From IMG/VR virus record IMGVR_UViG_3300034280_000211, positions 1 to 59,649 of that record: a stretch of 59,649 nt of DNA; one strand, given 5' to 3'. The stretch is from a virus. Taxonomy: Duplodnaviria > Caudoviricetes. Shown in pieces: positions 1,320 through 59,649 of the stretch (positions within the stretch are counted from its first letter, which is position 1; each line of letters starts with the position of its first letter). Below the pieces are notes generated by a model. That model had not been told where the DNA came from. It did no database searches and worked only from the letters and a program-made list of their open reading frames with translations. Made by a program: the position numbers and the translations under genes.

Positions 1320-1811
1320 CTACCACTTCACCCGATCTGCCACGGCTTGGCACAAATGAATAAAGTATTCTTGTGAAAACGACTGCTTCATCATGTTGAT
1401 GTCCTTGTGGACTAGCTGGCAGTTGTCCTGCGTGTAGCCAAGGCTGCTGTCAATGCGATCAATGGATGCCGTGTGGCCGCTTCCGACTTCTTGCCACCCT
1501 ATCTCCAGACCGGATACGGCACAGCGGCCGTCTTGCTCCGCATGCCATCTCGCCACATCCTCTGCGGCAATCTCAAACGGGATGCCCCTTAGTTCTGCGC
1601 TAACGCGAAACTTGTGGAACCAAGAAAGCCGCACGGGGCCACAGAGACCGCGATGGCAGTTGTCCGTTTTCCTGTTTGAGCATTTCTTGCACACCTTTCC
1701 GTCGCGAAGCGAAGCAATCGCATACCACCGTCTCAGGTAGTCCTGCTGCTCTCCGCATTCTGGGCACGGCTTGGTCCACCGGCCGTCCTCGCGTTTAGTT
1801 ACTGCAACCAC
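1320..1811 (-). CDS. HNH-type endonuclease with Zn-finger N-terminus
   Basis: CPEC/CKKC, CAVSG and SIDRIDSSLGY..DN..LV...IN..K motifs; start re-assigned to GTG 1811. Confidence 0.8.
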   Translation of the reverse strand: MVAVTKREDGRWTKPCPECGEQQDYLRRWYAIASLRDGKVCKKCSNRKTDNCHRGLCGPVRLSWFHKFRVSAELRGIPFEIAAEDVARWHAEQDGRCAVSGLEIGWQEVGSGHTASIDRIDSSLGYTQDNCQLVHKDINMMKQSFSQEYFIHLCQAVADRVKW

Positions 1812-1821
1812 TGTGTAACTC

Positions 1822-2076
1822 TCACCATTTTTCGCGATTGGCCCAATACGCCGCAGACATCTTGCCCTTGGCGATGTTCTCTGCGTGGCGGGCCTTAAAG
1901 GCTTCGTTCCTTGCCGATCCGTCAGGTGAGCCTTCGACACCCTGTTGGCCGAAGCGGATCAGCTTCTCCTGGTCACCGGACTTCGCCAGGACCATGTGCG
2001 ACTTCTCCGGATGATTCGGAGTACGCACCGGACGATTCGGAATCAGCTTCCGGATCTTGTCACCCTCGCTGTCCAC
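1822..2076 (-). CDS. Small basic conserved viral protein (DUF5754-like)
   Basis: IRFGQQG...FKARHA...SAAYWA motif. Confidence 0.7.
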   Translation of the reverse strand: MDSEGDKIRKLIPNRPVRTPNHPEKSHMVLAKSGDQEKLIRFGQQGVEGSPDGSARNEAFKARHAENIAKGKMSAAYWANREKW

Positions 2077-5865: not shown

Positions 5866-6678
5866 ATGGTCACAAGATCACGCACCGCCCGTCCGCTCGG
5901 TGTCATTCTGCACCGGGGCCGGTCTGACTTTGACGGCTCCCCGTATGTGGTGATCATGCCACTCGGGAAGTCTGGCAATATCAAGACCGGCGGTATGCTC
6001 CAGACCTATATCATTAGGTCGCATGTGCATCCCGTACAGGCGGTGCGTACAGGTGGCGACATCGCCATCTGCGGTGCGGGTGATACCGCCTGCCCGCTGC
6101 AAGGGGTTTTCGTCCGCAAACGCGGCAAGCGAAAGTTCCGTGCGTGTTATGTCAACGTAGGCCAGGGCCCTGCCATGGTCTACAGTGCGTTCCGGCGTGG
6201 TCGATACGTGGAGTATTCCGCCATTGACCATGACCAGTTCATTCGGGGTCGCAAGATTCGGTTCGGCACATACGGCGAGCCGGTGCTGATCCCCCTGGAG
6301 CTAATGAACCATCTGGCCAGTATTTCCGCTGGCTGGACGGGGTATACTCACCAGTGGTCAAAGGTTCAGTATGCGGGCTATCGGCAGTATCTCATGGCAT
6401 CTGTCCATGGTCTTACTGGCCCGTGGTCGCGTGAGCATGCCAAGCATCTAGGCTGGCGTACCTTCCGCACCATGCGTGGAGGTGTGCCTGCTGACAGTGA
6501 GATTCTCTGCCCGGCCTCCCTGGAGGCTGGCAAGCGGCTCACCTGTGAGCAGTGCCGTCTATGTGACGGTGCGGGTACTCGCAAGGCGGGCCTGTCGTTA
6601 GTGGACGTTTACATTCCCGGGCATGGTGGCAAGGCGATTATGTCTGCCATTGCACATCTGCCCATCCTTCAGGCGTGA
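5866..6678 (+). CDS. Gp88-like Cys-cluster phage protein
   Basis: N.KTG, C...CP, CY, IRFGTYGEP, TGYTHQW and CP...TC.QC.LC motifs. Confidence 0.7.
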   Translation: MVTRSRTARPLGVILHRGRSDFDGSPYVVIMPLGKSGNIKTGGMLQTYIIRSHVHPVQAVRTGGDIAICGAGDTACPLQGVFVRKRGKRKFRACYVNVGQGPAMVYSAFRRGRYVEYSAIDHDQFIRGRKIRFGTYGEPVLIPLELMNHLASISAGWTGYTHQWSKVQYAGYRQYLMASVHGLTGPWSREHAKHLGWRTFRTMRGGVPADSEILCPASLEAGKRLTCEQCRLCDGAGTRKAGLSLVDVYIPGHGGKAIMSAIAHLPILQA

Positions 6679-10882: not shown

Positions 10883-10949
10883 GCGAGATGGCTGACTTCT
10901 GCGTTGGTTCCCTGGTTGTCCTTGCCTTCCTCTGGTGGAGTTCCCTTGC

Positions 10950-11708
10950 ATGAAACTGTATCTCTATGGCCGTGTCTCAACGGATGATCAGCAGACATCG
11001 GCTGATGCTCAGTCGGTCAGGCTGCGTGAGTTCGCTGAGAAGTCCGGCCTGGAGATTGGCGGTGTGTTCGTGGACGAGGATGTCTCTGGCAAGATCCCCC
11101 TCCAAGAGCGACCCAAGGGGAAGGAGTTGTGGAATCTCATCCAACCTGGGGATGCCATCGCATTCACCAAGGTGGATAGATGTTTCCGATCCTTGGTAGA
11201 TGCCGCCTCCACCCTGGAGAAGTGGAAGACTCTCGGCATCCGGGTCCATATCCTGGACTTGGGGATCGATGTGAACACGCCGGCTGGAGAGTTGTTCTTC
11301 TCCCAACTGGCAGCCTTCGCTCAGTTTGAGCGGGCCATGATCGGCCTGCGCGTGCGTGAGGCCCAGGCCCACAAGCGGCGCACCGGCAAGCCCTACAACA
11401 AAACCCGCCCTATCGGCTGGCGCAGGCAGGGTGACTGCTATGTGCCCCTGCATTCCGAGCGGAGGCTAGCCGAGCGTGTCATCGCTTACCGCGACCGTGG
11501 CGAGTCGCTGCCCCGGATTGCTTTGCGTCTGTGCAAGGAGAACATCCGGAGCGCTGACGGCTCTTGGCTTCGCCCTTCCCATGTCCGGCGGCTGGAGATC
11601 GCGGCGCGAGCCGGATATCCAAGGATTGCGAGACGGTCCTTGCAAGCCTCTGCGCAGACATGCTCGCCACACGGATCGGGATCTGATGTTCCTCCGACAG
11701 AGACCTGA
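10950..11708 (+). CDS. Serine recombinase (resolvase/invertase family)
   Basis: YGRVSTDDQ catalytic motif, D.DVSG, RP, KVDR.FRS, A.FER and a C-terminal HTH. Confidence 0.92.
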   Translation: MKLYLYGRVSTDDQQTSADAQSVRLREFAEKSGLEIGGVFVDEDVSGKIPLQERPKGKELWNLIQPGDAIAFTKVDRCFRSLVDAASTLEKWKTLGIRVHILDLGIDVNTPAGELFFSQLAAFAQFERAMIGLRVREAQAHKRRTGKPYNKTRPIGWRRQGDCYVPLHSERRLAERVIAYRDRGESLPRIALRLCKENIRSADGSWLRPSHVRRLEIAARAGYPRIARRSLQASAQTCSPHGSGSDVPPTET

Positions 11709-12123
11709 GCGTCATGCCGTGCATGAAGCGGTTGAACGCCATCTCCTGGTCGTCCTCTGGCAACTCTTCAATCGCCAGCCGCAGGTGATCTAGCTCGTCG
11801 TATTCCGGCATGCGGTCAGCAGCGTCAGCCAGTGAGATGCGGTTCTCTCTCGGCGTGCGGGTCGCCTTCTTAATGAATTTCAACATGCCATTGAGGATGG
11901 CCCGAGCGAAGTAGGCTTTCGGATACGGGAGTCTCTTGGGATCGTACGTCCGTGCAGCCTTCGATAGGGCGAGGAACCCCTCCCCTTCCAGGTCGTCAAC
12001 GTACAGCGACCGCTGCCATTGCGGGCGGTTCTGTACGAAGTACCTCGCCAACATGTGGACGAGGTCCAGGTAATCAGTGACCAGGCGCTGCTTTGTCTTT
12101 GAGAGTTTTGATCTCTTGCTCAT
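11479..12123 (-). CDS. Sigma-70 family RNA polymerase sigma factor
   Basis: Region 2 (LV..LA, DDL..EG.LAL.KAA..YDP, Y..RAI) and region 4 (L..AI..LP, G.TL...S) motifs. Confidence 0.85.
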   Translation of the reverse strand: MSKRSKLSKTKQRLVTDYLDLVHMLARYFVQNRPQWQRSLYVDDLEGEGFLALSKAARTYDPKRLPYPKAYFARAILNGMLKFIKKATRTPRENRISLADAADRMPEYDELDHLRLAIEELPEDDQEMAFNRFMHGMTLRSLSEEHQIPIRVASMSAQRLARTVSQSLDIRLAPRSPAAGHGKGEAKSRQRSGCSPCTDAKQSGAATRHGRGKR

Positions 12124-12304
12124 GCATTTCCAGCCGAGCCTCATGGTCGGCCAGTGTTTCTTTCAGTTCTTCAAACATCTCAGGCATGCGTTGCACCGTG
12201 TCGGCAATCACCGCCACCTTGGCGTGGATTGAAAACGCCCACGGAATCACGGCCGCACAGGCCGAAATCACAAGCATCCAGAATTCTGCGTCAACGCTCA
12301 TCAT
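12074..12304 (-). CDS. Single-TM coiled-coil protein, holin-like
   Basis: N-terminal TM then a coiled coil. Confidence 0.6.
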   Translation of the reverse strand: MMSVDAEFWMLVISACAAVIPWAFSIHAKVAVIADTVQRMPEMFEELKETLADHEARLEMHEQEIKTLKDKAAPGH

Positions 12305-12510
12305 GTCATCCCCATTAGCACCATGCCCGCGTACGGATGTAGTTGGCCTTCCAGTACATGCAGTCTGATGATCTCCATCGCATCGGGGGTTTCTTCATCG
12401 GGGAACTGGTAGATGTGGGTGTGTCCGTTGTATTTCACGATGAGCCGAGTGAACTGGACGCCTCGCTCTTCAGCCTGCGGATCTCGCCAGCGTTTCTTTT
12501 GGATATCCAC
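12301..12510 (-). CDS. Hypothetical protein
   Basis: Coupled ORF; start uncertain. Confidence 0.5.
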   Translation of the reverse strand: MDIQKKRWRDPQAEERGVQFTRLIVKYNGHTHIYQFPDEETPDAMEIIRLHVLEGQLHPYAGMVLMGMT

Positions 12511-12749
12511 TTCAGTATCCAGTGAGAGATGAGGTTCGCGATAATGGGGAGAACGAAGAGAAGGAACACCGACCCGCATTCTGGGTTGAGCCTGCGGTAT
12601 TCGGTGCGGATGCGAGACCGATACTCTTGCAGTGATGCCTCCTCATCCCAGACGACGATAGCCACCAGAGCCACATCCGTGGCACGGCTACTGAGCCTTC
12701 TCGTCTTGGTGTATCGGACTGCTTCATCGGCTACTTCTTGGGCGCGCAC
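12435..12749 (-). CDS. Membrane protein
   Basis: TM segment VFLLFVLPIIANLISHWIL. Confidence 0.6.
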   Translation of the reverse strand: MRAQEVADEAVRYTKTRRLSSRATDVALVAIVVWDEEASLQEYRSRIRTEYRRLNPECGSVFLLFVLPIIANLISHWILKWISKRNAGEIRRLKSEASSSLGSS

Positions 12750-12979
12750 TGGCCACCTTCGCATCCCTTCGCCTTGCACTTGCAAGTATCTGGACATGGA
12801 CACTTCGTCTTGTGTCCATCACCGTGCGTGATCACGCCGGCCTTGCATTGGCCGCAGCATTCCTTCACCAGCACCGGCGCCTTCTGTGTGGCGATCACGT
12901 ACGCTGCCTCCGCCGCGACGGGCCCGGTGTAGTCGGGCGTTCCCCAGAACGACGCGAGAATGAGGAACAACTTACTCAT
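12731..12979 (-). CDS. Secreted Cys-rich small protein
   Basis: Signal-like N-terminus; CC..C..G...HGDGH...CPC...C.C. Confidence 0.7.
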   Translation of the reverse strand: MSKLFLILASFWGTPDYTGPVAAEAAYVIATQKAPVLVKECCGQCKAGVITHGDGHKTKCPCPDTCKCKAKGCEGGQCAPKK

Positions 12980-13922
12980 TGCGGAGGAGTCCTATCGCGC
13001 CGAAGTCGGGCAGCTTCTGGGGTGGGTAGCCCTGCACATCCGAATACAGCCAGCAATCCTCTGAGTCGATGCACACCTGGAAGTCTTCGTCCTTCACCAC
13101 GATCATGCCGGGAACCCAAGGCGGGTAGTCTGCCGGCCAGTCCTTGGGACGCTGGTTCCACTGTCCCCACTCCTGCATGAGGAACCAGACGCGGAAGGGC
13201 CAGAACGATTTCGTATCGTCATAGCCACCGATGGCCATGTCATGGTTCCAGCCTGGGGAGATGCGGTTGTAGTAGTGCTGGCTGTTCGGTTCGGCCGCCC
13301 ACGCTGCGTACTGACCCGAGTGTGCGGCGTACCCGTTGATCATCGCGTCCATGAGGTCGGCCTGTGACCGGACGAGCGTGATGGTGCCGACGTTCCGCTC
13401 CTTGCACTTCTCTTTCACATCGTTCGGGACACCAGTCCTGCCCCATCCGATGCCGACTGACGAGTACTTCGTCAGGTTCACCACGCCGTGATCTTCTCGC
13501 GAGAGGTAGCCGAAGTCCCTCTCAAACCTGGACGCCTTGGCTGGGCTCATGCCCTGCCCGCCATGGCCACGCGCCCCGTACGTTGGCTCCAGTGCGCCGC
13601 GCTTGTAGAAGTCGTGCGGCTCGCCATGCACCAGAATGCGGGTTGCCCTGGTCATGTCCCTCGCATTGCGAGAACCATGGGCTACGCAATCTCCAGTAAT
13701 TTGATTCTCAGTAAACGCAGTCGGGTCTAGCGTGCGGAGGTAGCCGAAGAGCAACGCACGCTTTCCCTCACCCATTCCACGGATGTTGGGCTCATTGAAG
13801 TACTGGTACTTCTGCGTCTCCAGAAACTCAATGCGGCCACGCGGGTCAGCGAAGTACCCGGGCAGCCCACCATTCTGGTAGGCATTCAGGATTTCGTACG
13901 GCGTTTCAAAGTCTTCAGCCAC
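12972..13922 (-). CDS. Papain-like (C1) cysteine peptidase
   Basis: Q..GDCVAHG (Gln/Cys), NHDMAIGGYDD (His), WFLMQEWG. Confidence 0.78.
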   Translation of the reverse strand: MAEDFETPYEILNAYQNGGLPGYFADPRGRIEFLETQKYQYFNEPNIRGMGEGKRALLFGYLRTLDPTAFTENQITGDCVAHGSRNARDMTRATRILVHGEPHDFYKRGALEPTYGARGHGGQGMSPAKASRFERDFGYLSREDHGVVNLTKYSSVGIGWGRTGVPNDVKEKCKERNVGTITLVRSQADLMDAMINGYAAHSGQYAAWAAEPNSQHYYNRISPGWNHDMAIGGYDDTKSFWPFRVWFLMQEWGQWNQRPKDWPADYPPWVPGMIVVKDEDFQVCIDSEDCWLYSDVQGYPPQKLPDFGAIGLLRNE

Positions 13923-14334
13923 CGGCTTGCCTCGCGATCTCTAGGCAAGCCTTCTCCAGGTTCCTCCACACTGGCTGGCCTTGCGACTCTGCCGTGAGGG
14001 ACAGGTTGTCCAGGGAGTTCGACTTGGCGAGGACTTCCTCTACCGCCTTGTCTAGTCCTTCGTACTTCCCGACGAAGGGGGATCCGCCCACGGCCAGTCG
14101 GAGTTCGCTACTGTGGATAGCGCGCCACATCGCTGTGGAAACGATCTGGCTACCCCGGTCCCTTGCGGTCACATCGGCTAACGCGCGGTAGATGCCGGCG
14201 ACCCTGGCCCTGTCGGAGGAGGAGGCCGACGCAAGGGCTTTAGTGACGGGACCGGACTCAACGACCGGCCGTGGGGGTAAAAACGTATACGCAACGAATA
14301 GCGCAGCAAAAACAAGCGGGAGGTGTTTCATCAT
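13915..14334 (-). CDS. Membrane-anchored/secreted protein
   Basis: N-terminal hydrophobic segment followed by Pro. Confidence 0.7.
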   Translation of the reverse strand: MMKHLPLVFAALFVAYTFLPPRPVVESGPVTKALASASSSDRARVAGIYRALADVTARDRGSQIVSTAMWRAIHSSELRLAVGGSPFVGKYEGLDKAVEEVLAKSNSLDNLSLTAESQGQPVWRNLEKACLEIARQAGG

Positions 14335-14537
14335 TCCACCCCCAGCAGAACACGCAGGAGAGCATTGCACGCCTGCGTGACTTTCGGATCGGTGTACGCA
14401 TCCCGGATCCTGACCACCTGTTCAATCGGATCCAGGAGTTGCGGCTTCGCAGGGATGATCGCTTTGAATGAGGGGAGGTAGTACCACGCCGTCACTCCCA
14501 GGAATGCGACGATGGCAAGGATCTGATAGGTGGTCAC
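14331..14537 (-). CDS. Small single-TM protein
   Basis: QILAIVAFLGVTAWYYL; GTGA overlap. Confidence 0.65.
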   Translation of the reverse strand: MTTYQILAIVAFLGVTAWYYLPSFKAIIPAKPQLLDPIEQVVRIRDAYTDPKVTQACNALLRVLLGVE

Positions 14538-15463
14538 AGGATTTTGGCTCCGGGGATCCAGATGGTCACGCCATCCTTCGATGAGCGGACTTCGTAGTTC
14601 AGCAGTTTGTGTGGGTCCAACAGACCCCAACCGTAGATGTCGTCACGCCCCTGCTCACCAACATCACGGCATGAGTAGGACAGTGCGGAGGTGGCGGAGT
14701 GGAAGTCCACCTTCATGCCTTCTCTCTTACAGGAGGAGACGTACAGAGCGAGGACGCCAGCGACGAAGGGCGCGGCCATGCTCGTCCCGGAGATCGTGGC
14801 GTAGCCATCAGCCAGCCAAGTGGAGGTGATGTCCTGGCCCGGCGCAGCGACCGTGATCTCTTTCCCACGGGAGGAGAACTCGCAGGCATTCCCATTGCGA
14901 TCCACAGCACCGACTGCAATGGTCTCTTGGAACGCGGCCGGGTAATCCACTGCGCCGCCGTCGTTCCCAGCAGCACAGACGACGACGATCCCATTGGCGT
15001 GCGCCGCCTTTATCGCAGCATGCAACTGGGCGTCCGGTCTCGCAGACCCGAGCGACATGCAGATGATGTCGACCTTGGCTTCCGTGGCGTAGGTCACGGC
15101 TTGGGCTACGGACTCATTCGATCCCATGCCAGAGTGGCCAAGGACTTTCAATGAGAGAAGCGTACAGCCAGGAGCAATCCCCTTGGCTGGGCCCTTCTTC
15201 GCACCGATGATGCCAGCGACATGCGTTCCATGTCCCACCGTATCGTGCTGGTCTGAATCACTGGAGAAGTTCCGGTGATCCTTCACATCCAGCGCGTAGT
15301 GCGGGGCGATGCCCGTGTCTACGACCGCAACCGTGACGCCGTCTCCGCAAGTGCCCTTCCACAGGGAGGGAATGCCGTAGGCGTGGAGACCCCAGTCTAC
15401 TCCTTCGGAGAGCGGCGTCGGTGAAAAGGTAACTCTGTACGGCGGAAGGTGGACGTAGCTCAC
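14534..15463 (-). CDS. Subtilisin-family (S8) serine protease
   Basis: VAVVDTG, GHGTHVAG, AAGN and GTSMAAP catalytic motifs. Confidence 0.95.
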   Translation of the reverse strand: MSYVHLPPYRVTFSPTPLSEGVDWGLHAYGIPSLWKGTCGDGVTVAVVDTGIAPHYALDVKDHRNFSSDSDQHDTVGHGTHVAGIIGAKKGPAKGIAPGCTLLSLKVLGHSGMGSNESVAQAVTYATEAKVDIICMSLGSARPDAQLHAAIKAAHANGIVVVCAAGNDGGAVDYPAAFQETIAVGAVDRNGNACEFSSRGKEITVAAPGQDITSTWLADGYATISGTSMAAPFVAGVLALYVSSCKREGMKVDFHSATSALSYSCRDVGEQGRDDIYGWGLLDPHKLLNYEVRSSKDGVTIWIPGAKIL

Positions 15464-15798
15464 TTCCGCACAAGGGCTTCCAGGATGGCGATGATGATCG
15501 GCAGGATCGTGTCGATCAACAATTTGTAGTCAATGCCCAGTGCCTGGACTTCCGCACCGCAAGCGAGAACTGATACGTCATGGTCTCCGTAATCATGGAG
15601 CGTGTCCCACTCCACGGTCAGGAGCTTGGGGGTCACGGCATCAGCTTCCAGGATGGGGATCACCAGTCGGGCGATCTTGTCCACGATCTCCCACTGGTCG
15701 GAGTACTTGGCATCCTTCCGGAAACCCTTGGAGACATCCACAATCTGAAGCAACACGTTCTTATGCTTCAGCAACCACTGCAAAACTTTGAGATTCAT
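15460..15798 (-). CDS. Hypothetical protein with hydrophobic C-terminus
   Basis: Coupled ORF. Confidence 0.7.
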   Translation of the reverse strand: MNLKVLQWLLKHKNVLLQIVDVSKGFRKDAKYSDQWEIVDKIARLVIPILEADAVTPKLLTVEWDTLHDYGDHDVSVLACGAEVQALGIDYKLLIDTILPIIIAILEALVRK

Positions 15799-16959: not shown

Positions 16960-17321
16960 TCGGGCTCCACAGAACGAAGGAGACTCTCCAACAATTCGGC
17001 GTAGTGGTTCGGGCGTTCGGATGCGAACCCGCTCTCCAGGAGGAACCCGGTCAGTGTTTCCCCGGAGGAAATATCTTGGAGATCGCCAAGCAGCCGGCCG
17101 TACGGATCCCGGAACCAGTCGGAGGTGATGAGCCGGAACCGCCCGCCCTCCTGGTGGACCTCGCACCAGTCAACGATGGCCTGCTTGGCATCGTCATTGC
17201 AGTACACACCTTCCAGCACCATGTACTGGGTGAGCATGGACTGCACCTGTGGTACTGCGGAGCGAATCATCACTGTGTCTGGCCTAGTAACTCTGACCAC
17301 TATGGCTTCCGTGCCGACCAT
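16956..17321 (-). CDS. Thermonuclease (SNase)-like protein
   Basis: VVRV...DT, D.YGRLLG, LL..G.A. Confidence 0.65.
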   Translation of the reverse strand: MVGTEAIVVRVTRPDTVMIRSAVPQVQSMLTQYMVLEGVYCNDDAKQAIVDWCEVHQEGGRFRLITSDWFRDPYGRLLGDLQDISSGETLTGFLLESGFASERPNHYAELLESLLRSVEPE

Positions 17322-17698
17322 CCCTGGACGTTCCTTAGTCTTTCTTCCTTGTAAGCATCGGGTAGTTCTTTTGGTTCGTAACCGAGATGCTTTTTGTGCT
17401 TTAGTGATGCGAGGAACTTGGGGTCGTAGTTAGAAGGGTCGCACTCTCGCTTCACGCCCAAGAGTATACTCTTGTCCAGGTCGTGAAGTCCAGTGATGAA
17501 TGACCCCGAGTGCAAGACGGTGTGGCAGTTGTTACAGAGCCTGACATATTGCCTGATGTCATGCTTGCGTCCGGCTCCGCCAACGAGGTGATGCACCTCC
17601 AGCCAGCGACGGCCGTCGCTCTCCGGCCACCAGCAGACGGCGCAAGATCGATGCTCCTCCAGCCAGCTTTGGAGATCAATGCGTTCTTGCTTGTTCAT
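17300..17698 (-). CDS. HNH endonuclease
   Basis: CAVC, EVHHL, LC..CH...H. Confidence 0.8.
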   Translation of the reverse strand: MNKQERIDLQSWLEEHRSCAVCWWPESDGRRWLEVHHLVGGAGRKHDIRQYVRLCNNCHTVLHSGSFITGLHDLDKSILLGVKRECDPSNYDPKFLASLKHKKHLGYEPKELPDAYKEERLRNVQGWSARKP

Positions 17699-18149
17699 TT
17701 ATTGCAGCAGAAACATCTGAAAGAAACTTGCAAAACTCTTCGTCGGAATGATGGCCCTTGGCAGCATTCAAACCCCACAAAATCATTCTTGTGTTCTCTT
17801 GCAGGTATCCGAGTGAACTGTCAATCCTGTCTGGAGATGGCCTGCGTAATGACATGTGCCCGTAATCAAACGGAATCCCTGTGATCTCGCACACTCCAGC
17901 GGAAAGTTTTTGCGAAAACCAGTCCACGGTCAGGTCAAACGTCAGCGTGCGATCCAACGCGCGAGTTCTAGCCGACCGATATAAAGCCATAGCCGGATTC
18001 GCTAAACGCCATTCCCGAGTTTTCTGGCGGTTGCATTCACGGCAAATGTTATGTAGGCCGTCAGGGCGACGACTGTCTGCCGAAAAGCACGATCTCGGCA
18101 ACGACCTGCCGCAAGCACCTCCGCACAACTTCTCAGCCTCCGCGATCAT
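17676..18149 (-). CDS. HNH-type endonuclease with Zn finger
   Basis: DGL...C.EC, CEITG, SPDRIDSSLGY...N...LN..K. Confidence 0.8.
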   Translation of the reverse strand: MIAEAEKLCGGACGRSLPRSCFSADSRRPDGLHNICRECNRQKTREWRLANPAMALYRSARTRALDRTLTFDLTVDWFSQKLSAGVCEITGIPFDYGHMSLRRPSPDRIDSSLGYLQENTRMILWGLNAAKGHHSDEEFCKFLSDVSAAINEQARTH

Positions 18150-18538: not shown

Positions 18539-19162
18539 TTACTTAAACTCGCGGGTGAACATCGTTCTCCAGCCTGGAATGCGGAGCCTGCATCGCTCCT
18601 CGTTCCAGCGGCAGAACTCTGTCAGATCCCGTGATTCGTATTGAGGAAGCGCCTTCGCCATCGACCAGAGATGCCACGCATAGGTGGCCATCTCGGCGCA
18701 GTAGCGGTCGCTTTCCTGGCGTGTCGCCAGCTTCAGTTCGCCCCGGGTAATGGACCCGGAGGTGTACGCTGCCCACTCGTCCAGGAGCATGAGCGGCTGG
18801 ACGGACCAGTACTCCGTCGCTCCCTGCTTGCGGTAGGTTTCGTAGATCGATCCCCGTTCTTCCTTGGGGATCGCGGCGAAGACCTCGGCCGTCAGAAGCG
18901 GAGGCGTGGGGATGAAGACCCGTATACCGTTTCCGATATACACGCCGTGGAACCCGGTCTTCCCACGGCACAGGAAGTGATTGCCTTCATGGGCGTAGGT
19001 GACAAGATCGGCGTCCTTGGCGTCCGTGTTTACCGGGAGCCGGGCCGCAATGTCGGTCAGCGTCCAGGGGAATGCTGCCGGCGGAGACGAGACAACCGGG
19101 GCGTACTCCACCTCGGCTGCACCAGCCGCAAGCTCCCCGAATAACACGATCAAACTGATCAT
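18539..19162 (-). CDS. Secreted HExxH zinc metallopeptidase-like protein
   Basis: Hydrophobic N-terminus; AHEGNH and a downstream DEW.AY third-ligand motif. Confidence 0.65.
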   Translation of the reverse strand: MISLIVLFGELAAGAAEVEYAPVVSSPPAAFPWTLTDIAARLPVNTDAKDADLVTYAHEGNHFLCRGKTGFHGVYIGNGIRVFIPTPPLLTAEVFAAIPKEERGSIYETYRKQGATEYWSVQPLMLLDEWAAYTSGSITRGELKLATRQESDRYCAEMATYAWHLWSMAKALPQYESRDLTEFCRWNEERCRLRIPGWRTMFTREFK

Positions 19163-19190: not shown

Positions 19191-19802
19191 CTACTCGTCT
19201 TCTGAAATGCCATCATAGAAATACGCTTCGTCCTTGCTCACATCGAACGAGCAAGACTCCGAATGGTAAGTGTCCTCCTGGACCGAATAGCCAACCGACC
19301 CCGGATCTGGATGGGCACCGATAAAATACCCGTCCGTCCATGCAATGCGGTTTGTCGGGAGTGCCAGGAGGTTTCCGTCCCAGGTCTCCATGACATGGGC
19401 ACACTTGTTCTGTTCCGGCCGCAGCGTAAACCCTGGGCGTTCCGGGGAATCCGGTAGCCAGTCCACGGTGAACAGGTATGAAGCGCTGACGTTCCCGGTG
19501 CGTGTCCGGCAGATAGCCTCATGTTCATGGAGGTAGGAGAACACAGTGATGATCGGCCGGCTGGAGAAGCAGTCCCACAACTGGCATGTACTCAGGGCAA
19601 TCGTCGGGGCGTCTGGCTCCGTGCAGATCGCATGGATCGGCACGTTCCGGTAGTGGGCCCCGGACTTCAACATCACATGGAACCCAAGGGCCCTGCCGGC
19701 CACGGACTGGACGGCAAAGGCATAGCCCTCCTCCAGTCCCTCCTTCTTGGAGATGAAGGGGAGCCTGACCCACACACGCTGAAAGGGAATGTCGGCGTTC
19801 AT
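19191..19802 (-). CDS. Conserved phage hypothetical protein
   Basis: WDCFS, YLFTVDW, KCAH and P.NR motifs; start at MNADIP. Confidence 0.7.
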   Translation of the reverse strand: MNADIPFQRVWVRLPFISKKEGLEEGYAFAVQSVAGRALGFHVMLKSGAHYRNVPIHAICTEPDAPTIALSTCQLWDCFSSRPIITVFSYLHEHEAICRTRTGNVSASYLFTVDWLPDSPERPGFTLRPEQNKCAHVMETWDGNLLALPTNRIAWTDGYFIGAHPDPGSVGYSVQEDTYHSESCSFDVSKDEAYFYDGISEDE

Positions 19803-19942
19803 TTGGCAAGCATCCAGAGCCCGATGTTTGAAAATGCGTAGCCGGCGTAGGCCAACGACATCCCGGTATTGCCGCGCGCAAACTGATCCACGGCAACGTA
19901 CAGATAGATAACGCCTGTAATGGCAATCAGCGTTCCACTCAT
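19799..19942 (-). CDS. Small membrane protein
   Basis: LI..TG.IY...Y.GYAFSNIGL pattern. Confidence 0.7.
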   Translation of the reverse strand: MSGTLIAITGVIYLYVAVDQFARGNTGMSLAYAGYAFSNIGLWMLAK

Positions 19943-20018
19943 GGCTCCCCCATGGATAGGTTGTAAAGCAGCATGGCACACGCAAAGATCAGGGCAATGA
20001 ACCACTGCATAGGGTCGA

Positions 20019-20294
20019 TCATCGGTAGACAACCCCGGCGGTCATGGAGCCAGTGTGAACTTCCACGCAGCACGCACGCGGAAACTCCTGGCTAATCCTT
20101 TCCGCAGAAGCGACGAGATCCTCCGCATCAAGCTGCGCCTTGTGAGCATGAACCCAGTTGCCCACCACGGCGTAGTCAGACTCCGCAGATGGACCATCCT
20201 TAGTCCGCTCCATCCATACCCGGATGTTCCTGTTGAGCGTCCGGAACCGCAGAACGTTCTCAGGTGTCTTTCGCTTGGTTGTGAACCACATCAT
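20019..20294 (-). CDS. Hypothetical protein
   Basis: GGAGG SD. Confidence 0.6.
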   Translation of the reverse strand: MMWFTTKRKTPENVLRFRTLNRNIRVWMERTKDGPSAESDYAVVGNWVHAHKAQLDAEDLVASAERISQEFPRACCVEVHTGSMTAGVVYR

Positions 20295-22112: not shown

Positions 22113-23144
22113 TCAATTAAGTCTGGCTCGCTCACGGCGATCCCTTTCCTTTCTGAACAGGTTCTTCACCCAGCCCTCACGTAGGTCACGGCAGGCCCAA
22201 TGGATGTAGCCATTCGTTAACTCCGACATCTTCATGCCGGCGTACTTGCCCTTCAGCGGGTTGAAGTAAGTGCCGACGCACCGCGACCCGGCGCCAATGT
22301 CAAACTCGCGGCGGCGAATACTTCCAGATGCCTGCCCCCTGGTAGCGGCGCGGCGGGCTTCGATCTCCAACGCCAACTTCCGCTTGGCCTCTTCCTCCGC
22401 ACGCAGGGCAGCAAGCTCCGCTTCCGTCAGTGGAGCCTTGGCCTCCGCCGCACGGCGCTTCACCTCCTTCACAACCTCTGGCCCGGCCTGGACAAACATG
22501 TCCACGGCCGTGACGAGACGGTGATCCAGGCTGGCGTCGGTGCAGTCAACAATTTTGAAGTGCGGCTTGGCGCTCTCGGCTATGCGTTGCCGGCGGAGGT
22601 CGGGAGTGGAGCCCTGGAAATCGACCACTCCCGGCAATGGACGAGTAGCGCGGCCAACACACTGGAGCCAAAAGCTCCGAGAGCGAGTTGGTCTTCCGAG
22701 TATGAGTGTTGCAGTTGGAGGGAAGTCGAAGCCAACGGCCACAACTTGGCAATTAACCAGCACCTGAACATCTCGCGTCTTAAAACGTCGCAGATTCTCT
22801 CGGCGTTCATCCTCGTCCTGTTTGCCATGCACATAAACTGACGGAATTCCGTAGTTATTGTTGAGGTAATGGCACACCCCGGCAGCCGCAGCCACGCCCG
22901 CAGTGAACACCACGGTCTGGCCTTCCATCTCTTCCTGAGTGATCAGGCAGATTCGCTGAAGGGTTGCTTCTTTGACCATCTCGTCAGCCAGTGCGGATTG
23001 TTTAAAGTCGTCGCCTACGATTGCTATTCCGCTGAGATCCAAGGAGGCAACCTTGGAGATGCGACAGACGGGGGGCACGGACCAGCCGTTGTCGATTGCC
23101 CATCGGAGGTCGTAGTTACACAAGGATTGTTCGTAGAACTGCAT
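22113..23144 (-). CDS. SF2 (DEAD/DEAH) helicase, C-terminal half
   Basis: TVVF, VHG, LVNC.V...GFD.P, RPT.S...Q.VGR..R; C-terminal GKY.G...Y..W. Confidence 0.88.
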   Translation of the reverse strand: MQFYEQSLCNYDLRWAIDNGWSVPPVCRISKVASLDLSGIAIVGDDFKQSALADEMVKEATLQRICLITQEEMEGQTVVFTAGVAAAAGVCHYLNNNYGIPSVYVHGKQDEDERRENLRRFKTRDVQVLVNCQVVAVGFDFPPTATLILGRPTRSRSFWLQCVGRATRPLPGVVDFQGSTPDLRRQRIAESAKPHFKIVDCTDASLDHRLVTAVDMFVQAGPEVVKEVKRRAAEAKAPLTEAELAALRAEEEAKRKLALEIEARRAATRGQASGSIRRREFDIGAGSRCVGTYFNPLKGKYAGMKMSELTNGYIHWACRDLREGWVKNLFRKERDRRERARLN

Positions 23145-23629
23145 AGTAAACCCCTCCCGTCCATCCGAAATGGAGTCGCCGTAAACCCAGCAATCATCGC
23201 CCCGTCGTTTTGAAAGTAACGCAACATCTCAACCACTGGCTCACTGCACATCAGGTGAGCCTCGTCCACAATCACCAACTGAAAATCACGGAACCGCTTG
23301 TAGCGCGGCTCCCCGCCCCGCCGGCTGAGTAGCGTCTGCTTCGATGCCACAATCACCTTGCTGGGGTAATCCTCTTCCGCACGGAAGTCGGCCATCTCAA
23401 CATCAGGATCCTGCTCTGTGATGTCCCGCACCTTTTCAATCGCCTGCCAGACCAGCTCACGCATCGGGCAGATGATCAACGTCCGACCAAGAATCCGTGC
23501 AGCCAATGTCACAAAGATCACGGTCTTGCCAGCACCCGTAAACAAGCCGTTGAGCGTGGAGGTAACACCACGATCCATAGCCTGGAGGTTGGCGGTAACA
23601 ATCTCTTCTTGGTAGTCACGGAGTTCCAT
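23024..23629 (-). CDS. SF2 helicase, N-terminal ATPase half
   Basis: LRDYQ, TGAGKT, DEAH, GFTATP. Confidence 0.9.
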   Translation of the reverse strand: MELRDYQEEIVTANLQAMDRGVTSTLNGLFTGAGKTVIFVTLAARILGRTLIICPMRELVWQAIEKVRDITEQDPDVEMADFRAEEDYPSKVIVASKQTLLSRRGGEPRYKRFRDFQLVIVDEAHLMCSEPVVEMLRYFQNDGAMIAGFTATPFRMDGRGLLCSSTNNPCVTTTSDGQSTTAGPCPPSVASPRLPPWISAE

Positions 23630-23678
23630 AAGAAAAAACCCGGGGGCGAGGAGGGACGGGGGTTGCCTCGCCCCCGGG
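23630..23678 (-). terminator. Rho-independent terminator between ssb and helicase
   Basis: 13-bp stem followed by TTTTTTCTT, directly before the helicase ATG. Confidence 0.75.
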
Positions 23679-23684
23679 GAGCCA

Positions 23685-24014
23685 TCAGAAGGTGGCGAAC
23701 TCCTCCTGGGGCTCAGGGCGCTTCCCTGCGCCCAACAACGTGAGGGAGCGGACGGCCAAAACCATCTTGCTCTTCTTCTGTCCGTCCTTCTCCCAGGACT
23801 GCTGATCCAGTTCCCCGGTCACGCAGACCTGACAGCCTTTGACGAGGTACTCCAGTACGCCGCCGATACGCCAGTGATCGCAGTCCAAGAACATGACCTT
23901 GTCCTTGCGGCCATTGACCGCGATGGAGTAGCGACCGACCTCGGTCTCGCCGACCATCTTGGACTCAGCGTCCTTAGTGATCCGCCCAGTAAACGTGCAG
24001 ACATTCGTATCCAT
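23685..24014 (-). CDS. ssb: Single-stranded DNA-binding protein
   Basis: N...GR..KD.E, IAV, KG..V.V.G.L, W..DGQK.S and an acidic/aromatic tail. Confidence 0.92.
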   Translation of the reverse strand: MDTNVCTFTGRITKDAESKMVGETEVGRYSIAVNGRKDKVMFLDCDHWRIGGVLEYLVKGCQVCVTGELDQQSWEKDGQKKSKMVLAVRSLTLLGAGKRPEPQEEFATF

Positions 24015-24016
24015 GA

Positions 24017-24652
24017 TTACGCCTCAACTTTCTGATAGGTGTCATCAAACTTCTTCTGGATCCGTTCCAGAACCGCCTTCGGGCATGCCTTCTCCAACAC
24101 ACGCTGCTTCACCAACGAGACAACCTTCTTTGCCTCGTCCACGCTCTTGGCTTCCGCGAGCGCCTTGGTCGCCTTGCTCTCAATCTCCATCCCCTTGGTG
24201 ACGGCATCCGCCTCCGACGAGCGGGCCGTGTGCTGCACGGAGTTGCCGTCGTCGTCAGCCTCACCGGAGAAACCTCCGGTGAGCGCCATGAGGAGCGTCC
24301 GCTTGGCATACGTCATCGCCGCGCCGAAGCCCTGCATGTCACCCTTCGGATTGACAAGCGGAGCTACGCCTGAGATGTACTGACCGCTGCTGTGCCGGAG
24401 CGTGCCGACCAGCACCCACTGCGAGCCTGCGAGACCCGGACGAAAATCGGGAAGCGCAATCCCGTTCTTTGTCAGCGGGCCACGCAGGGACTCGCAGCAT
24501 TGAGCAAACGAACTGAACTTGCTGCGGAAGTGCGGGTTCGCACTATCCAGAGCAACGGCCTGGTACTCCGATTGAGCCTTGGCCAAAGCCTTCGTCAGTT
24601 CAGCCGTCTCCGGCGAACTACTGGGCCCGAGAATGAATTGATTGTCCATCAT
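24017..24652 (-). CDS. ERF-family ssDNA annealing protein
   Basis: NPHF.SK, L.HSSGQ, Q..G.A.TYAKR..L, DDDG. Confidence 0.9.
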   Translation of the reverse strand: MMDNQFILGPSSSPETAELTKALAKAQSEYQAVALDSANPHFRSKFSSFAQCCESLRGPLTKNGIALPDFRPGLAGSQWVLVGTLRHSSGQYISGVAPLVNPKGDMQGFGAAMTYAKRTLLMALTGGFSGEADDDGNSVQHTARSSEADAVTKGMEIESKATKALAEAKSVDEAKKVVSLVKQRVLEKACPKAVLERIQKKFDDTYQKVEA

Positions 24653-25497
24653 ATAAGCACCTCCTCCTTCTTCTGTGCCCACGGCGGAATCACTAACTCC
24701 GTGATCTCGCCAAACGTCGCGGGCGTGTAGATCCCCGTCTCTCTCCGCAAACGAACTTCCTCCATGACTCGCTCCATACGCCGGCCGGCTTCCTCCACAA
24801 CTTCCTGTGGGAGGTAGAACACTTGGCAATCAAACGGCGGCACCGAATGAACAAACACAAACGGCATGCGGAAGTGATCCATGCCCATCGCCATCGCGGC
24901 ACGGACATAAAGCCACTCTTGTTCCGAGTAGCCGTATGAAAACACGCTGCGGTACAACTCGTCCCACGGCGCGGAGGTGGACTTCAGGTCCCACCAGTAG
25001 TCGATGGCACAACCGTCAGGCCGGACCTTCACGCGGTGGCCGTTGATCTCGCAGAAGACAGAGACCTGAGTCTCCACCGTCTCCTTCACACACCTCAGTG
25101 CAGCAGGGTTCGCAAGCAGGGACTCCGCCATCGTGCGGAGTTTGAATGCGTACTCCTCGTTGCAGGCAATCTTGCCCGTGGCGACCGTCTCGGCTTCCCA
25201 CTCCTTGTACGCCTTCGTCCCACGCCGGCCGTCAACGCCTAGCACATCAGCCGGGGCAATGGCCAGGAGCTTGTCCATCTCCTTGCCGTCGCAAATCTCC
25301 ATGACGAGCGTGTCGAAGTCGGATCCCAGGCTTGTGGCGCTGTTGCCTTCAAAGATTCTGTGGCCCAGGTCCAGCCACCTTTGAGCGAATCCACCACCCT
25401 TCAGTACGGCGACAAAAAAAGACCGCGAATCGAAATCGTTCTGTGCGAAGTAGTCGGCGTTCGCCATGCCGACAACCTTCCTTGGCAACGTGTCCAT
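24649..25497 (-). CDS. RecE/Exo VIII-like PD-(D/E)XK exonuclease (DUF3799-like)
   Basis: K.RPD, DLKST, Y..Q...Y, F.FV. Confidence 0.85.
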   Translation of the reverse strand: MDTLPRKVVGMANADYFAQNDFDSRSFFVAVLKGGGFAQRWLDLGHRIFEGNSATSLGSDFDTLVMEICDGKEMDKLLAIAPADVLGVDGRRGTKAYKEWEAETVATGKIACNEEYAFKLRTMAESLLANPAALRCVKETVETQVSVFCEINGHRVKVRPDGCAIDYWWDLKSTSAPWDELYRSVFSYGYSEQEWLYVRAAMAMGMDHFRMPFVFVHSVPPFDCQVFYLPQEVVEEAGRRMERVMEEVRLRRETGIYTPATFGEITELVIPPWAQKKEEVLI

Positions 25498-25695
25498 ACG
25501 TTCACTCCTAGTTCTTAGACCGAATCCTCTGAAGACGGCGGTAGGCGGCGATGAAATCGCCAAGCTGTCCCAAGGCCAGCAGGGTCAGTGCAAAGCCGGA
25601 CCAGCGAAGAAAAATGAAGGTGGTCAGCGCGGCCAGATAGGCGGCGCTAAGAATGGGGTAGTCCCGGGAGAAAACCCCTGCCAGCCATGCGTAGA

Positions 25696-46753: not shown

Positions 46754-47280
46754 GTTCGCCCTTTCGCTTTGTAGGCATGTTTGTCGATGAATCGCTCCCG
46801 CACTTCCCCGGCCTTGGCTCCCGGGTTCTTGCGGAGTTCCTTCCTGACCTCTTCGGCCACTATCCGTTCGTTGATCAGCTTCCGTTTCGGGGCGGCGGGG
46901 CCGGGGTCATAATTCACTGTCCCCGCTACGGACATGCGGCGCTTCTTGGCCACTCGCAGGACATCGTCGTTGGACGAGACCCACGCCTCCGGGTCTTGCC
47001 ACCGTCGCTTGTCGGCCAGACCGCCGCAGTAGTATTTGCCGGAGATATTGATCCCGGCTGCCTTGGCCTCTTTGATCATCCACTTCGCGGATTCGGCTGG
47101 CATGTCGTCCAACTGCTGGTTGTTCATGCGGCCCTGCATGAATGCCCGGTCGGAGCCTTTGGTCCCGGGAGCGATCTGAAGTGCGACCATTTCCGCGAAC
47201 CGCTCTCCATACTGAAGGGCGTTCTTGTAGACCTCCACAGCCTCTCGGCCGCGATCACTGATTTGCTGGGGGATTTGCAT
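46750..47280 (-). CDS. Hypothetical protein downstream of portal
   Basis: 176 aa; DP.AWVS motif. Confidence 0.7.
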   Translation of the reverse strand: MQIPQQISDRGREAVEVYKNALQYGERFAEMVALQIAPGTKGSDRAFMQGRMNNQQLDDMPAESAKWMIKEAKAAGINISGKYYCGGLADKRRWQDPEAWVSSNDDVLRVAKKRRMSVAGTVNYDPGPAAPKRKLINERIVAEEVRKELRKNPGAKAGEVRERFIDKHAYKAKGRT

Positions 47281-59522: not shown

Positions 59523-59649
59523 CAATAGCCCATAGGCTATGCCCCCACCCATGACTCCTCCTGCGCCCATCAGCCCTCCGGCGATCTCGGGGTTCTCTTG
59601 GAGTGCCTTGCGGAGAACGACTTGCGGGGATTCTGCGGCGAGGCGGGCG
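59523..59649. repeat. Terminal direct repeat copy 2
   Basis: Identical to 1-127. Confidence 0.95.

Follow-up and report, generated by a model that had tools for sequence, protein, structure and literature searches.

A conserved phage gene block with two peptidases and small membrane proteins as a candidate lysis module in a genome without known muralytic domains

How might a phage without any known muralytic domain lyse its host? The question is raised by a gene block in IMGVR_UViG_3300034280_000211, a Caudoviricetes phage genome of 59,649 nt (hereafter the window, meaning the whole stretch of DNA analyzed), whose 127-bp terminal repeat goes with a complete genome. On the minus strand, between positions 12074 and 15798, the ORF list contains nine closely packed genes: an S8 subtilase, a papain-fold peptidase (g316), five membrane-anchored small proteins, a Cys-rich protein (g82), and a soluble protein (g92). 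In the best reading, to which we give about an even chance, a podovirus-like phage that probably infects Planctomycetota uses this block for lysis, with peptidases in place of the peptidoglycan hydrolase. The initial annotation had proposed proteolytic lysis for this locus. What stands of it is the cassette, the holin-like member, the two proteases, and the lack of an endolysin; what does not stand is a conserved set of three catalytic classes and the planctomycete envelope as a general explanation. The eight genes that it counted are all present, and g92 (12301–12579) had been overlooked.

The genes are translationally coupled, as first read, with stop/start overlaps at the junctions of the block. 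These are of 4 nt for g129/g112, g112/S8, and g92/g76, and of 8 nt for g151/g316 and g316/g82; the remaining junctions overlap by more because the true starts are uncertain. The cassette co-occurs in relatives (∼58/71 loci), and the gene order of the whole block is kept in ∼57–59 of 71 related viral loci (tblastn, as in all counts of loci below). The block comes after recombination and replication genes and before a sigma factor, away from structural and packaging genes, and a divergent recombinase also adjoins it. The sigma factor, of sigma-70/ECF type (11479–12144, minus strand; Sigma70_r2, E 2.7e-8; TIGR02937, E 2.3e-14), lies directly downstream and is matched in 57/71 loci. With a simple hydropathy scan (Kyte–Doolittle, 19-residue window, threshold ≥1.6), membrane helices are predicted in five of the nine products (g112, g99, g151, g122, and g76), in keeping with the anchored proteins called at first.

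The first gene, g112 (15460–15798, 112 aa; 58/71 loci), is soluble in its N-terminal part and carries a hydrophobic helix toward the C terminus (∼92–110), with no match in Pfam, PHROG, or NCBIfam. In g99 (14331–14630, with the true start probably downstream of 14630; 52/71 loci), one N-terminal membrane helix is followed by an ACNxLLxxLL motif that is conserved at the C terminus. Four loci (L025, L030, L044, and L055) have a fusion of a g99-like helix with g151. The g151 product (13915–14370, with a probable start at 14334; 59/71 loci) joins an N-terminal membrane anchor to a four-helix domain. Its model (pLDDT 91.7) is a helical bundle of no known fold: the best VIA Z is 6.0, and Foldseek gave nothing at E ≤ 1e-3. 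The one candidate with the shape of a SAR-endolysin, g151 was rejected as such, since the bundle has no lysozyme-like match; no Glu is invariant in the alignment (A2). Further along, g122 (12435–12803; 40/71 loci) carries one membrane helix near its C terminus (∼79–97), and g92 (43/71 loci) is a small soluble protein with the conserved motif YDGHTHIYQFP...LHVEEGQLHPYAG.

The last gene, g76 (12074–12304, 76 aa; 57/71 loci), encodes an N-terminal membrane helix (residues 8–26) followed by a charged coiled-coil tail. It matches phrog_1296 “holin” (E 1.2e-4) and XhlA (E 7.2e-4), and of the 22 orthologs of g76, 20 hit phrog_1296 (E ≤ 0.01; best E 3.1e-6), which agrees with the holin-like protein proposed initially; weak Rz-like matches occur in 2/22. 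The holin match is weak, and part of it may reflect the composition of a membrane helix plus a coiled coil. We call g76 holin-like from its PHROG annotation; a lesion-forming function is putative.

The g82 protein (12731–12979, 82 aa) has a short hydrophobic N terminus and six invariant cysteines in a zinc-knuckle-like pattern, CxxC...CxC...C(x2–4)C (alignment A4), with a CxxCxGxG form in L024 and L044. It had been described as a secreted Cys-rich peptide; it is indeed Cys-rich, but its hydrophobic N terminus is short and below the Kyte–Doolittle threshold, so that it is at most a candidate for secretion. An assignment as a lipobox o-spanin was also rejected, the first conserved Cys being at 41–42, far past the hydrophobic N terminus (A4). 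The g316 and g82 genes are kept together even in distant phages, namely in L057, L062–L066, and L069, all without the rest of the block.

The S8 subtilase (14534–15463, 309 aa; 59/71 loci) is correctly identified. It matches Pfam Peptidase_S8 (PF00082) with E 9.4e-52 and 176.5 bits, where the cut-off is 21.8. In an alignment of 52 distinct orthologs, D49, H78, N167 (the oxyanion Asn), and S228 never vary. It also matches phrog_3677 “protease” (E 7e-77) and, under the cut-offs of those families, the NCBIfam mycosin-like proteases (E 5.7e-53) and the PatA/PatG and QhpE maturation proteases (E ∼1e-28). Neither a signal peptide nor an I9 propeptide was found in the sequence. The ortholog in L004 has an insertion at the His motif.

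The second peptidase, g316 (12972–13922, 316 aa), had been read as a papain-like C1 peptidase, and its predicted structure (pLDDT 76.5, pTM 0.82) has the papain fold, with a central helix (79–99) that begins at C79 and a β-barrel lobe in which the strands 220–226 and 229–235 flank H227. In VIA comparisons, it aligns with xylellain (3ois; rmsd 3.3 Å over 235 residues), 1xkg, and 4i04 with Z of 19.2, 18.6, and 18.1 (233–248 residues, rmsd 3.2–3.5 Å), and the best 20 matches are all C1-type proteases. Foldseek gave 83 PDB matches at E ≤ 1e-3, and those listed are all C1-type cysteine proteases. Xylellain, pro-Der p 1, procathepsins, and Cwp84 appear among the structural matches of the two programs. 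The likeness to C39 leader peptidases is weaker (VIA Z ∼8). The best matches are proforms: the N-terminal ∼75 residues of g316, a candidate inhibitory propeptide, align to the propeptides of C1 zymogens, with alignments that begin at model residues 6–18. No signal peptide was found in g316.

The active-site residues of C1 peptidases come in the order Gln...Cys...His...Asn(–Ser–Trp). In the g316 alignment (A1), Q74, C79, H227, and W252 are invariant, and in a subfamily alignment (A3), Q63, C68, H223, and N243–S244–W245 are invariant, so that this order is found. The consensus of A1 is NSWG, whereas g316 of the window has Q250–E251–W252–G253; this replacement of the papain Asn–Ser by Gln–Glu would count against a role in lysis. 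Judged by their active-site residues, both proteases of the block are catalytically intact. The window g316 has no match to PF00112 at E ≤ 0.1 and thus falls under the Pfam C1 gathering threshold; 19/42 family members match weakly (best E 0.0078), and P0244 scores 19.5 bits for a cut-off of 20.7. For this reason, we would place g316 in a family of its own, new and adjacent to C1, rather than count it as a C1 member. In relatives, 44 long forms of g316 were compared; 23 of them have an intein immediately ahead of Cys79, and others occur between residues ∼198 and 258, around His227; Pfam matches to intein or LAGLIDADG domains are present in 13/14 long forms tested. The position of the inteins points to the Cys79 and His227 motifs as the most constrained part of the protein.

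A third catalytic class had been proposed from a signal-bearing HExxH protein nearby, g207 (18539–19162, minus strand). It has a signal-peptide-like N terminus, the HExxH motif, and a downstream DEW motif, and H58, E59, H62, and D128–E129 are invariant in 10 orthologs, which makes it a candidate zincin. No match was obtained in Pfam, PHROG, NCBIfam, PDB sequences, or named Atlas entries. Its conservation is patchy (13/71 loci), and three catalytic classes are therefore not a conserved feature of these phages.

The g316 family extends well beyond this clade, with 1284 clusters at 50% identity, found only in uncultivated viruses. The genomes belong to many phage types, with GC contents of 0.32–0.67 and sizes up to 226 kb, and the peptidase gene adjoins terminase, RNR, capsid, or baseplate genes in varied architectures. 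Membrane helices are predicted by the simple hydropathy method in 38% of the ORFs (133/349) within three genes of a g316 homolog vs. 15% (73/497) further away; the 63 loci counted are related to each other, and a Fisher p-value is thus no true probability. In another subfamily, the peptidase gene is immediately followed by a thioredoxin-domain gene in 4/12 loci examined, at the place that g82 has in the clade. In BFVD, some phage proteins with the C1 fold bear the names “Peptidoglycan binding-like” and “N acetylmuramidase (Fragment),” which is a lead only. In these respects, we infer, the wider family resembles a lysis gene.

The same gene content could belong to a membrane-associated module for host takeover, superinfection exclusion, or envelope remodeling, with lysis carried out by something else. 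The proteases, neither of which has a signal peptide, would then cut cytoplasmic or membrane proteins of the host, for example those of defense or division or a receptor. The position of the block, where the replication/recombination region ends and next to the sigma factor and the divergent recombinase, is in line with such a role, as is a number of membrane proteins higher than a standard lysis cassette requires. However, there are no other recognizable candidate lysis genes in the genome, the orthologs of g76 match a PHROG holin family, and the peptidase family recurs in very different phages, each time among small membrane proteins and without known endolysins. Such a recurrence fits a universal function like lysis better than a host-specific takeover, and we regard the takeover module as rather unlikely.

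A conventional peptidoglycan hydrolase could also be present elsewhere and go unrecognized, with the proteases as accessories that clear outer envelope proteins or activate other proteins. Most ORFs are unannotated, and structure prediction covered g316 and g151, the latter without a lysozyme-like match; a cryptic fold could thus sit in the other ORFs, with the large virion proteins (26576–30193 and 30193–32145) and the HExxH protein as candidates. Against this stand the searches, which agree with the absence of lysozyme, amidase, transglycosylase, and M15/M23 peptidase noted initially. With Pfam, PHROGs, and NCBIfam, no muralytic family was found among the 92 ORFs of the genome (ten muralytic families in the ORF scans). 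In six-frame Pfam searches, the window has none of nine families (SLT, Amidase_2, M15_4, Amidase_3, GH108, GH19, M23, NlpC/P60, and CHAP), and all of these except GH108 are at 0/30 in the window plus 29 complete relatives of the clade. The sole GH108 match is sub-threshold, in one relative, and in a noncoding frame opposite real genes. Phage_lysozyme is at 0/29 in the six-frame search of the relatives and was covered in the window by the ORF scans. The GH19 and GH108 results carry little weight because these searches matched none of 14 control genomes. The sequence variation over 29 complete relatives should have revealed a divergent member. Further, in five complete, unrelated phages of 104–226 kb that have a g316 homolog, none of the ten muralytic families was matched. 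A hidden hydrolase appears to us improbable.

The proteases had been placed far from the head genes as an argument against prohead maturation. In this genome, over 30 kb indeed separate the block from the genes for capsid (56389–57516), portal (47255–49321), and terminase (50235–51914), but in a Thermoguttaceae prophage (L082) the g316 homolog is found between the capsid and the cement/head-tail joining genes, and the homolog of L069 comes after a gene for a baseplate wedge. One or both proteases could then mature prohead, scaffold, or tail proteins, and essential genes of replication and packaging often carry inteins, as g316 does in relatives. The position in L082 could reflect such a morphogenetic role. 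In P2-like phages, though, the lysis genes are held within a morphogenesis operon, so that this position is not decisive. The capsid here is of the podovirus type (NF033394 of NCBIfam), and such capsids normally use scaffolds without a protease; in addition, the neighbors of g316 are enriched in membrane, not structural, proteins. Morphogenesis is in our opinion very unlikely. Least credible of all is a processing of g82 into a secreted bacteriocin-like or signaling peptide, as in RiPP/double-glycine leader processing: although the likeness of S8 to PatA/PatG and QhpE, that of g316 to C39 peptidases, and a small, Cys-rich g82 that always adjoins g316 would suit it, g316 is far nearer to C1, no modification enzyme or ABC exporter was found in Pfam scans of the genome ORFs, what is conserved in g82 is a Cys-rich domain of zinc-knuckle pattern rather than a leader/core, and the other subfamily can have a thioredoxin-domain gene instead.

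If the block acts in lysis, g316 and S8, being devoid of signal peptides, would accumulate in the cytoplasm, where the N-terminal pro-like region may keep g316 as a zymogen. The holin-like g76, with g112, g99, g151, and g122, would permeabilize or reorganize the inner membrane, and the peptidases would then reach the envelope. There, g316, joined in this clade by S8, would cleave peptide bonds that keep the wall intact, either stem or cross-link peptides of the peptidoglycan or structural envelope proteins. The zinc-knuckle-like g82 would be a co-factor of g316 and may serve as chaperone, membrane tether, or regulator. Peptidoglycan peptides, envelope proteins, and a cytoplasmic target are all candidate substrates; as far as the lack of signal peptides in S8 and g316 can tell, cytoplasmic targets would fit equally well.

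A planctomycete host, as suggested initially, is plausible from sequence matches: 7 of 11 cellular matches bear Planctomycetota labels, two of them inside contigs of 0.9 and 5.5 Mb. Planctomycetes possess peptidoglycan, and a peptidoglycan-cutting activity is thus still expected. With a g316 family spread over phages of such diverse GC content and size, an envelope specific to planctomycetes cannot be the whole explanation.

Like the holin–endolysin–spanin cassette of phages of Gram-negative bacteria, the block is compact and co-oriented, with small membrane proteins, soluble hydrolases, and a holin-like member. It differs in having two proteases of different catalytic classes and no muralytic domain, in its more numerous membrane proteins, and in a g82 without the lipobox of an o-spanin. 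The V-CATH cathepsin of baculoviruses, accompanied by a chitinase, is a C1 zymogen that degrades barriers of the host as infection ends. It belongs, however, to a eukaryotic virus, acts at the tissue level, has no membrane-protein cassette, and is not closely related (a viral cathepsin appears in the BFVD search of g316 with E 0.11). The CHAP and NlpC/P60 domains of endolysins are, as g316 could be, papain-superfamily cysteine enzymes that serve as phage lysins. A classification paper assigns the enzymes that act on peptidoglycan to this cluster (PMC10318531). By contrast, g316 has a Cys–His spacing of 148 residues and the two-lobed papain architecture, and its 50 VIA matches listed include neither a CHAP nor an NlpC/P60 entry.

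A parallel in function is offered by PeiW, PeiP, and PeiR, clan-CA cysteine peptidases of methanogen (pro)viruses that are reported to bring about host lysis through cleavage of a peptide bond in the wall polymer (PMC4592898; PMC2989375), a task that falls to a glycosidase or an amidase in other viruses. The g316 protein is likewise a virus-encoded clan-CA peptidase and aligns with PeiR (8z4h) over 145 residues (VIA Z 9.6, rmsd 3.1 Å), but it is much nearer to family C1 (Z 15–19), has no recognizable wall-binding repeats, and would act on a bacterial host. In structure, xylellain (the best match) and Cwp84 (4ci7; Z 15.8, rank 11) are closer, with the pro-region aligned in both, at sequence identities of 13%–15%; unlike them, g316 is phage-encoded, adjoins membrane proteins, and is without a signal peptide. 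The PDB entry of Cwp84 is titled as a surface-layer-associated protease, which fits the idea that g316 would cut envelope proteins.

The minus-strand gene block at 12074-15798 is read most economically as a phage lysis module with peptidases as its effectors, a reading to which we give a probability of about one half. It rests on three considerations: every tailed phage needs a lysis module and no other candidate lysis genes are recognisable; the block combines a holin-family match with intact hydrolases under unusually strong constraint; and the peptidase family accompanies small membrane proteins across very different phages without known lysins.

The block itself is real, and the initial annotation had given it eight genes where there are nine (g112, an S8 subtilase, g99, g151, g316, g82, g122, g92 and g76), the additional one being g92 (12301-12579), which separates the membrane-protein gene g122 from the holin-like g76. 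At five of the junctions, the end of one gene overlaps the beginning of the next by 4 or 8 nt. The assignment to S8 is firm (Pfam E 9.4e-52), with D49, H78, N167 and S228 invariant in 52 distinct orthologs. The protein starts with MSYVHLPPYRV and has neither signal peptide nor propeptide; in a sequence search its only matches were S8 genes carried by large phages of Bacillus and Moorella (36-43% identity), which are uninformative on its function. A simple hydropathy scan predicts one membrane helix in each of five products; it is C-terminal in g112, N-terminal in g99, g151 and g76, and close to the C-terminus in g122. The Cys-rich small protein g82 had been called secreted, which is not established, its hydrophobic N-terminus being too short to score in the hydropathy scan; a g82 profile against PDB sequences gives nothing significant. 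The holin-like g76 matches phrog_1296, named "holin" (E 1.2e-4; PHROG names are annotations, not tested functions), and XhlA (E 7.2e-4), and 20 of its 22 orthologs match phrog_1296 (best E 3.1e-6), a consistent but weak signal.

The 316-aa protein g316 (559 close homologs) has no match in Pfam, PHROGs or NCBIfam, and against PDB chains both the single sequence and the profile yield chance-level matches only. In an alignment of 42 homologs, Q74, C79, H227 and W252 are invariant with the consensus NSWG, a combination which we take to be the papain pattern (the window protein has Gln-Glu where the family consensus has Asn-Ser). Weak Peptidase_C1 matches occur in 19 of the 42 members (best E 0.0078); a genome of Thermoguttaceae (G001) shows no PF00112 match. 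In the AlphaFold model (pLDDT 76.5, pTM 0.82), C79 begins a long helix and H227 lies between two strands. Foldseek returns 83 PDB matches at E<=1e-3, C1-type cysteine proteases throughout the matches listed, headed by xylellain, procathepsins and Cwp84. By VIA-align, the Z scores are 19.2 with xylellain (rmsd 3.3 Å over 235 residues), 18.6 with pro-Der p 1 and 18.1 with a procathepsin B; lower down come the pseudomurein endoisopeptidase PeiR (Z 9.6) and staphopain and C39 domains (about 8-9). Since the best structural matches are zymogens, aligned from residues 6-18 onward, the N-terminal 75 residues of the modelled protein may be a pro-region. The earlier "papain-like C1" label thus stands at the level of fold and motif; the protein itself falls short of the Pfam C1 threshold and is therefore better treated as a new family alongside C1. 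BFVD matches of the model include C1-fold proteins of uncultured phages, two of which bear the name "Peptidoglycan binding-like" and one the name "N acetylmuramidase (Fragment)", names that serve as a lead only.

The family is large. A g316 profile search against 1.84 billion representatives gives 1,284 clusters at E<=1e-3 (counted at 50% identity and a lower bound) and 805 at E<=1e-10. In 50,697 records of isolated phages, there is no tblastn match to g316 or to P0245, the query of a second subfamily (alignment A3), nor any match to the block in DNA and protein searches. The A3 query has 1,051 matches, with Q63, C68, H223, N243, S244 and W245 invariant. Long forms of at least 430 aa make up 60 of the best 150 family members. 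Intein or LAGLIDADG domains are present in 13 of the 14 tested that have a large internal insertion; among another 16 scanned, 15 are without Pfam match and one (P0244) has a sub-threshold Peptidase_C1 match only. Of 44 long forms mapped by BLASTP, 23 have a C-terminal segment that restarts at residues 73-78, immediately ahead of Cys79, and in another 11 the restart is at residues 62-69; 10 of the 44 have an insertion between residues ~198 and 258, in the region of His227 and of the N/Q250-W252 motif. The inteins are placed exactly at the catalytic motifs, which are therefore the most constrained sites of the family. Some members carry an N-terminal extension of 200-240 aa with no Pfam match.

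The gene order is conserved in related phages. We gathered 71 viral loci with the g316 alignment and placed the window proteins on them by tblastn, the gene calls there being heuristic. Matches in the same order are found for S8 in 59 loci, g112 in 58, g151 in 59, g99 in 52, g82 in 53, g122 in 40, g92 in 43, g76 in 57 and the sigma factor in 57, part of the absences being due to contig ends. A subgroup (e.g., L024 and L044) is without g122 and has a divergent g82 with a clear CxxCxGxG motif. In L025, L030, L044 and L055, the g151 ortholog carries an extra N-terminal membrane helix that resembles a fused g99, and no g99 match is found apart from it; this apparent fusion suggests that g99 and g151 act together. 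The distant loci L057, L062-L066 and L069 retain only g316 and g82. This constant pairing suggests that g82 would be a cysteine or zinc partner of g316, and thioredoxin-domain neighbours in some A3 loci point the same way. In other phage types, the genomic setting of the g316 homolog varies. In L079 it follows primase and precedes methyltransferase and terminase; in L061 it comes behind RusA and methyltransferase, in L069 behind a baseplate wedge gene, and in L082 it is located between capsid and cement/head-tail joining genes. A role of the block proteases as prohead proteases ranks low among the explanations, as does RiPP-like processing by them.

The 80 loci of A3 type range in GC from 0.32 to 0.67, on contigs of up to 226 kb. 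In 63 distinct loci, a membrane helix (hydropathy scan, threshold >=1.8) is predicted in 133 of 349 ORFs lying at most three genes from the peptidase versus 73 of 497 further off, and in 52% and 46% at the two adjacent positions; the Fisher p of 9e-15 for this enrichment is indicative only, the 63 loci being related. PHROGs assign no lysis annotation to 132 neighbouring ORFs of 12 loci. A thioredoxin-domain gene lies one to three genes downstream of the peptidase, the place of g82 in the window's clade, in four of these 12 (L116, L136, L147 and L153, at ~5900-6600 of each locus); two of the four proteins are larger, with a predicted membrane helix. Terminase is downstream in L136, L147 and L153, and ribonucleotide reductase in L097, L101, L108 and L116. 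Phage_lysozyme is found in none of 39 A3-type records, and nine further muralytic families in none of five complete genomes of 104-226 kb carrying the peptidase.

A recognisable endolysin had been reported as lacking from the window, and scans of 92 ORFs with Pfam, PHROGs and NCBIfam likewise find none. Six-frame Pfam searches of the window and 29 relatives (96-100% complete) give 0/30 for each of SLT, Amidase_2, M15_4, Amidase_3, GH19, M23, NlpC/P60 and CHAP, and 0/29 for Phage_lysozyme, searched in the relatives only. The searches for GH19 and GH108 matched none of 14 control genomes and are weak tests. One GH108 match in a relative (G003; 15.5 bits) is below the cut-off, in a frame opposite to real genes, and is treated as chance. 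The outline of g151 is that of a SAR endolysin, and its model (pLDDT 91.7) is a membrane helix followed by a four-helix bundle; with a best Z of 6.0, no Foldseek match at E<=1e-3, no lysozyme-like entry among the matches listed and, despite that outline, no invariant Glu in the ortholog alignment, a cryptic SAR-type lysozyme is less likely. Fold prediction covered two window proteins, g316 and g151, so a muralytic enzyme of unknown fold may still be present among the other ORFs.

The window, a virus record of 59,649 bp, is complete and carries a 127-bp exact direct terminal repeat (1-127 and 59523-59649), and nearly every gene between 59.5 kb and 11.5 kb is on the minus strand. A minus-strand ORF at 1-612 runs off position 1 and, given the repeat, probably continues from the opposite end of the record. 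Pfam, PHROGs and NCBIfam assign a P22-like portal (47255-49321), the large terminase (50235-51914), a podovirus-type major capsid protein (56389-57516), an Erf/exonuclease/SSB/helicase recombination-replication region (22113-25563), tail fibre proteins and, on the plus strand, a small serine recombinase of the resolvase/invertase type (257 aa, 10935-11708). The recombinase is divergent to the sigma factor and the block and has matches in 54 of the 71 loci; the A3-type locus L085 has a similar arrangement. The helicase consists of two overlapping minus-strand ORFs, 23024-23629 (ResIII/DEAD) and 22113-23144 (Helicase_C); its homolog in L079 is one protein of 573 aa, and the split may be genuine or may result from a frameshift or a sequencing error. 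The tail fibre protein at 41148-43559 (minus strand) has an Mtd_N domain (major tropism determinant N-terminal, E 3.2e-18); Pfam scans of the window detect no reverse transcriptase, so a diversity-generating retroelement is not evident beside it. Between 10500 and 27000, promoter and terminator counts equal the shuffled expectation. The load of homing elements is unusually high, with five HNH/endonuclease VII-type genes in the window (1320-1940, 17300-17698, 17676-18149, 49246-49917 and 52065-52709) and, in relatives, inteins in g316, HNH genes inserted between g151 and g316 (L026, L042, L050 and L052) and an S8 gene interrupted at the His motif (a 746-aa form in L004).

The HExxH protein g207 (18539-19162) is found in just 13 of the 71 loci; its profile gives nothing significant against PDB sequences, and an Atlas search gives unnamed viral clusters only. 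Some 30 bp upstream of it, in a minus-strand region at 19191-20032, is a phrog_3704 protein ("ferredoxin", E 1.1e-28), directly preceded by an ORF (19799-20032) with one membrane helix predicted by hydropathy and a second hydrophobic stretch seen by eye only; they may form a second membrane-associated mini-module.

A planctomycete host had been proposed and is plausible for the window's clade. Of 11 cellular loci from a pattern scan (one genome per prokaryotic species), 7 are labelled Planctomycetota (Pirellulaceae, three Planctomycetaceae, Pirellulales and two Thermoguttaceae), two of these 7 lying within contigs of 0.92 and 5.5 Mb; the remaining four come from MAGs of other phyla, on contigs of 3.6-53 kb. 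Profile matches occur in 5 of 401 sampled Planctomycetota genomes, the centre genome counted. For the wider family, the GC range of 0.32-0.67 argues for many hosts. Planctomycetes possess peptidoglycan. The idea first put forward, that three protease classes digest a proteinaceous planctomycete envelope, survives as one sub-case of a lysis module; it loses weight because the HExxH gene is conserved only patchily and the family is widely distributed. Predicted phages of Planctomycetes are catalogued in PMC6802176.

Beyond the lysis module of this clade, it is possible, though less likely than not, that the g316 family is an unrecognised major class of phage lysis enzymes, in which a C1-type peptidase with a thiol or zinc partner, joined by S8 in this clade, replaces peptidoglycan glycosidases and amidases. 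The replacement would span whole lineages of uncultivated phages with genomes from 36 kb to 226 kb; the partner would be g82 here and possibly the downstream thioredoxin-domain protein in some A3 loci, and S8 and g316 would perhaps form a zymogen-activation cascade.

The release of almost all tailed phages is attributed to a peptidoglycan hydrolase. In contrast, the complete genomes of this entire clade, like several large phages unrelated to it, show no known muralytic domain and share a conserved papain-type peptidase amid small membrane proteins. If it is lytic, it would be a new enzyme class in phage lysis, explain the cell exit of many uncultivated phages, apparently including those of Planctomycetota, and offer a direct probe of what holds the envelope together (peptide cross-links versus structural proteins). 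It would also give an annotation to a very large, so far unannotated family of viral "dark matter" and may yield lysins of unusual specificity; the lysis hypothesis can be tested directly. In the open-access literature (subscription-only papers being outside the scope), we found no report of C1 peptidases as endolysins and none of protease-based lysis in phages of Planctomycetes. According to excerpts of PMC10318531, papain-superfamily enzymes acting on peptidoglycan are placed in the NlpC/P60-CHAP cluster. In viruses of methanogens, cysteine endoisopeptidases act on pseudomurein (excerpts of PMC4592898 and PMC2989375), so that there is a precedent for a viral cysteine peptidase that cuts peptide bonds of a wall polymer.
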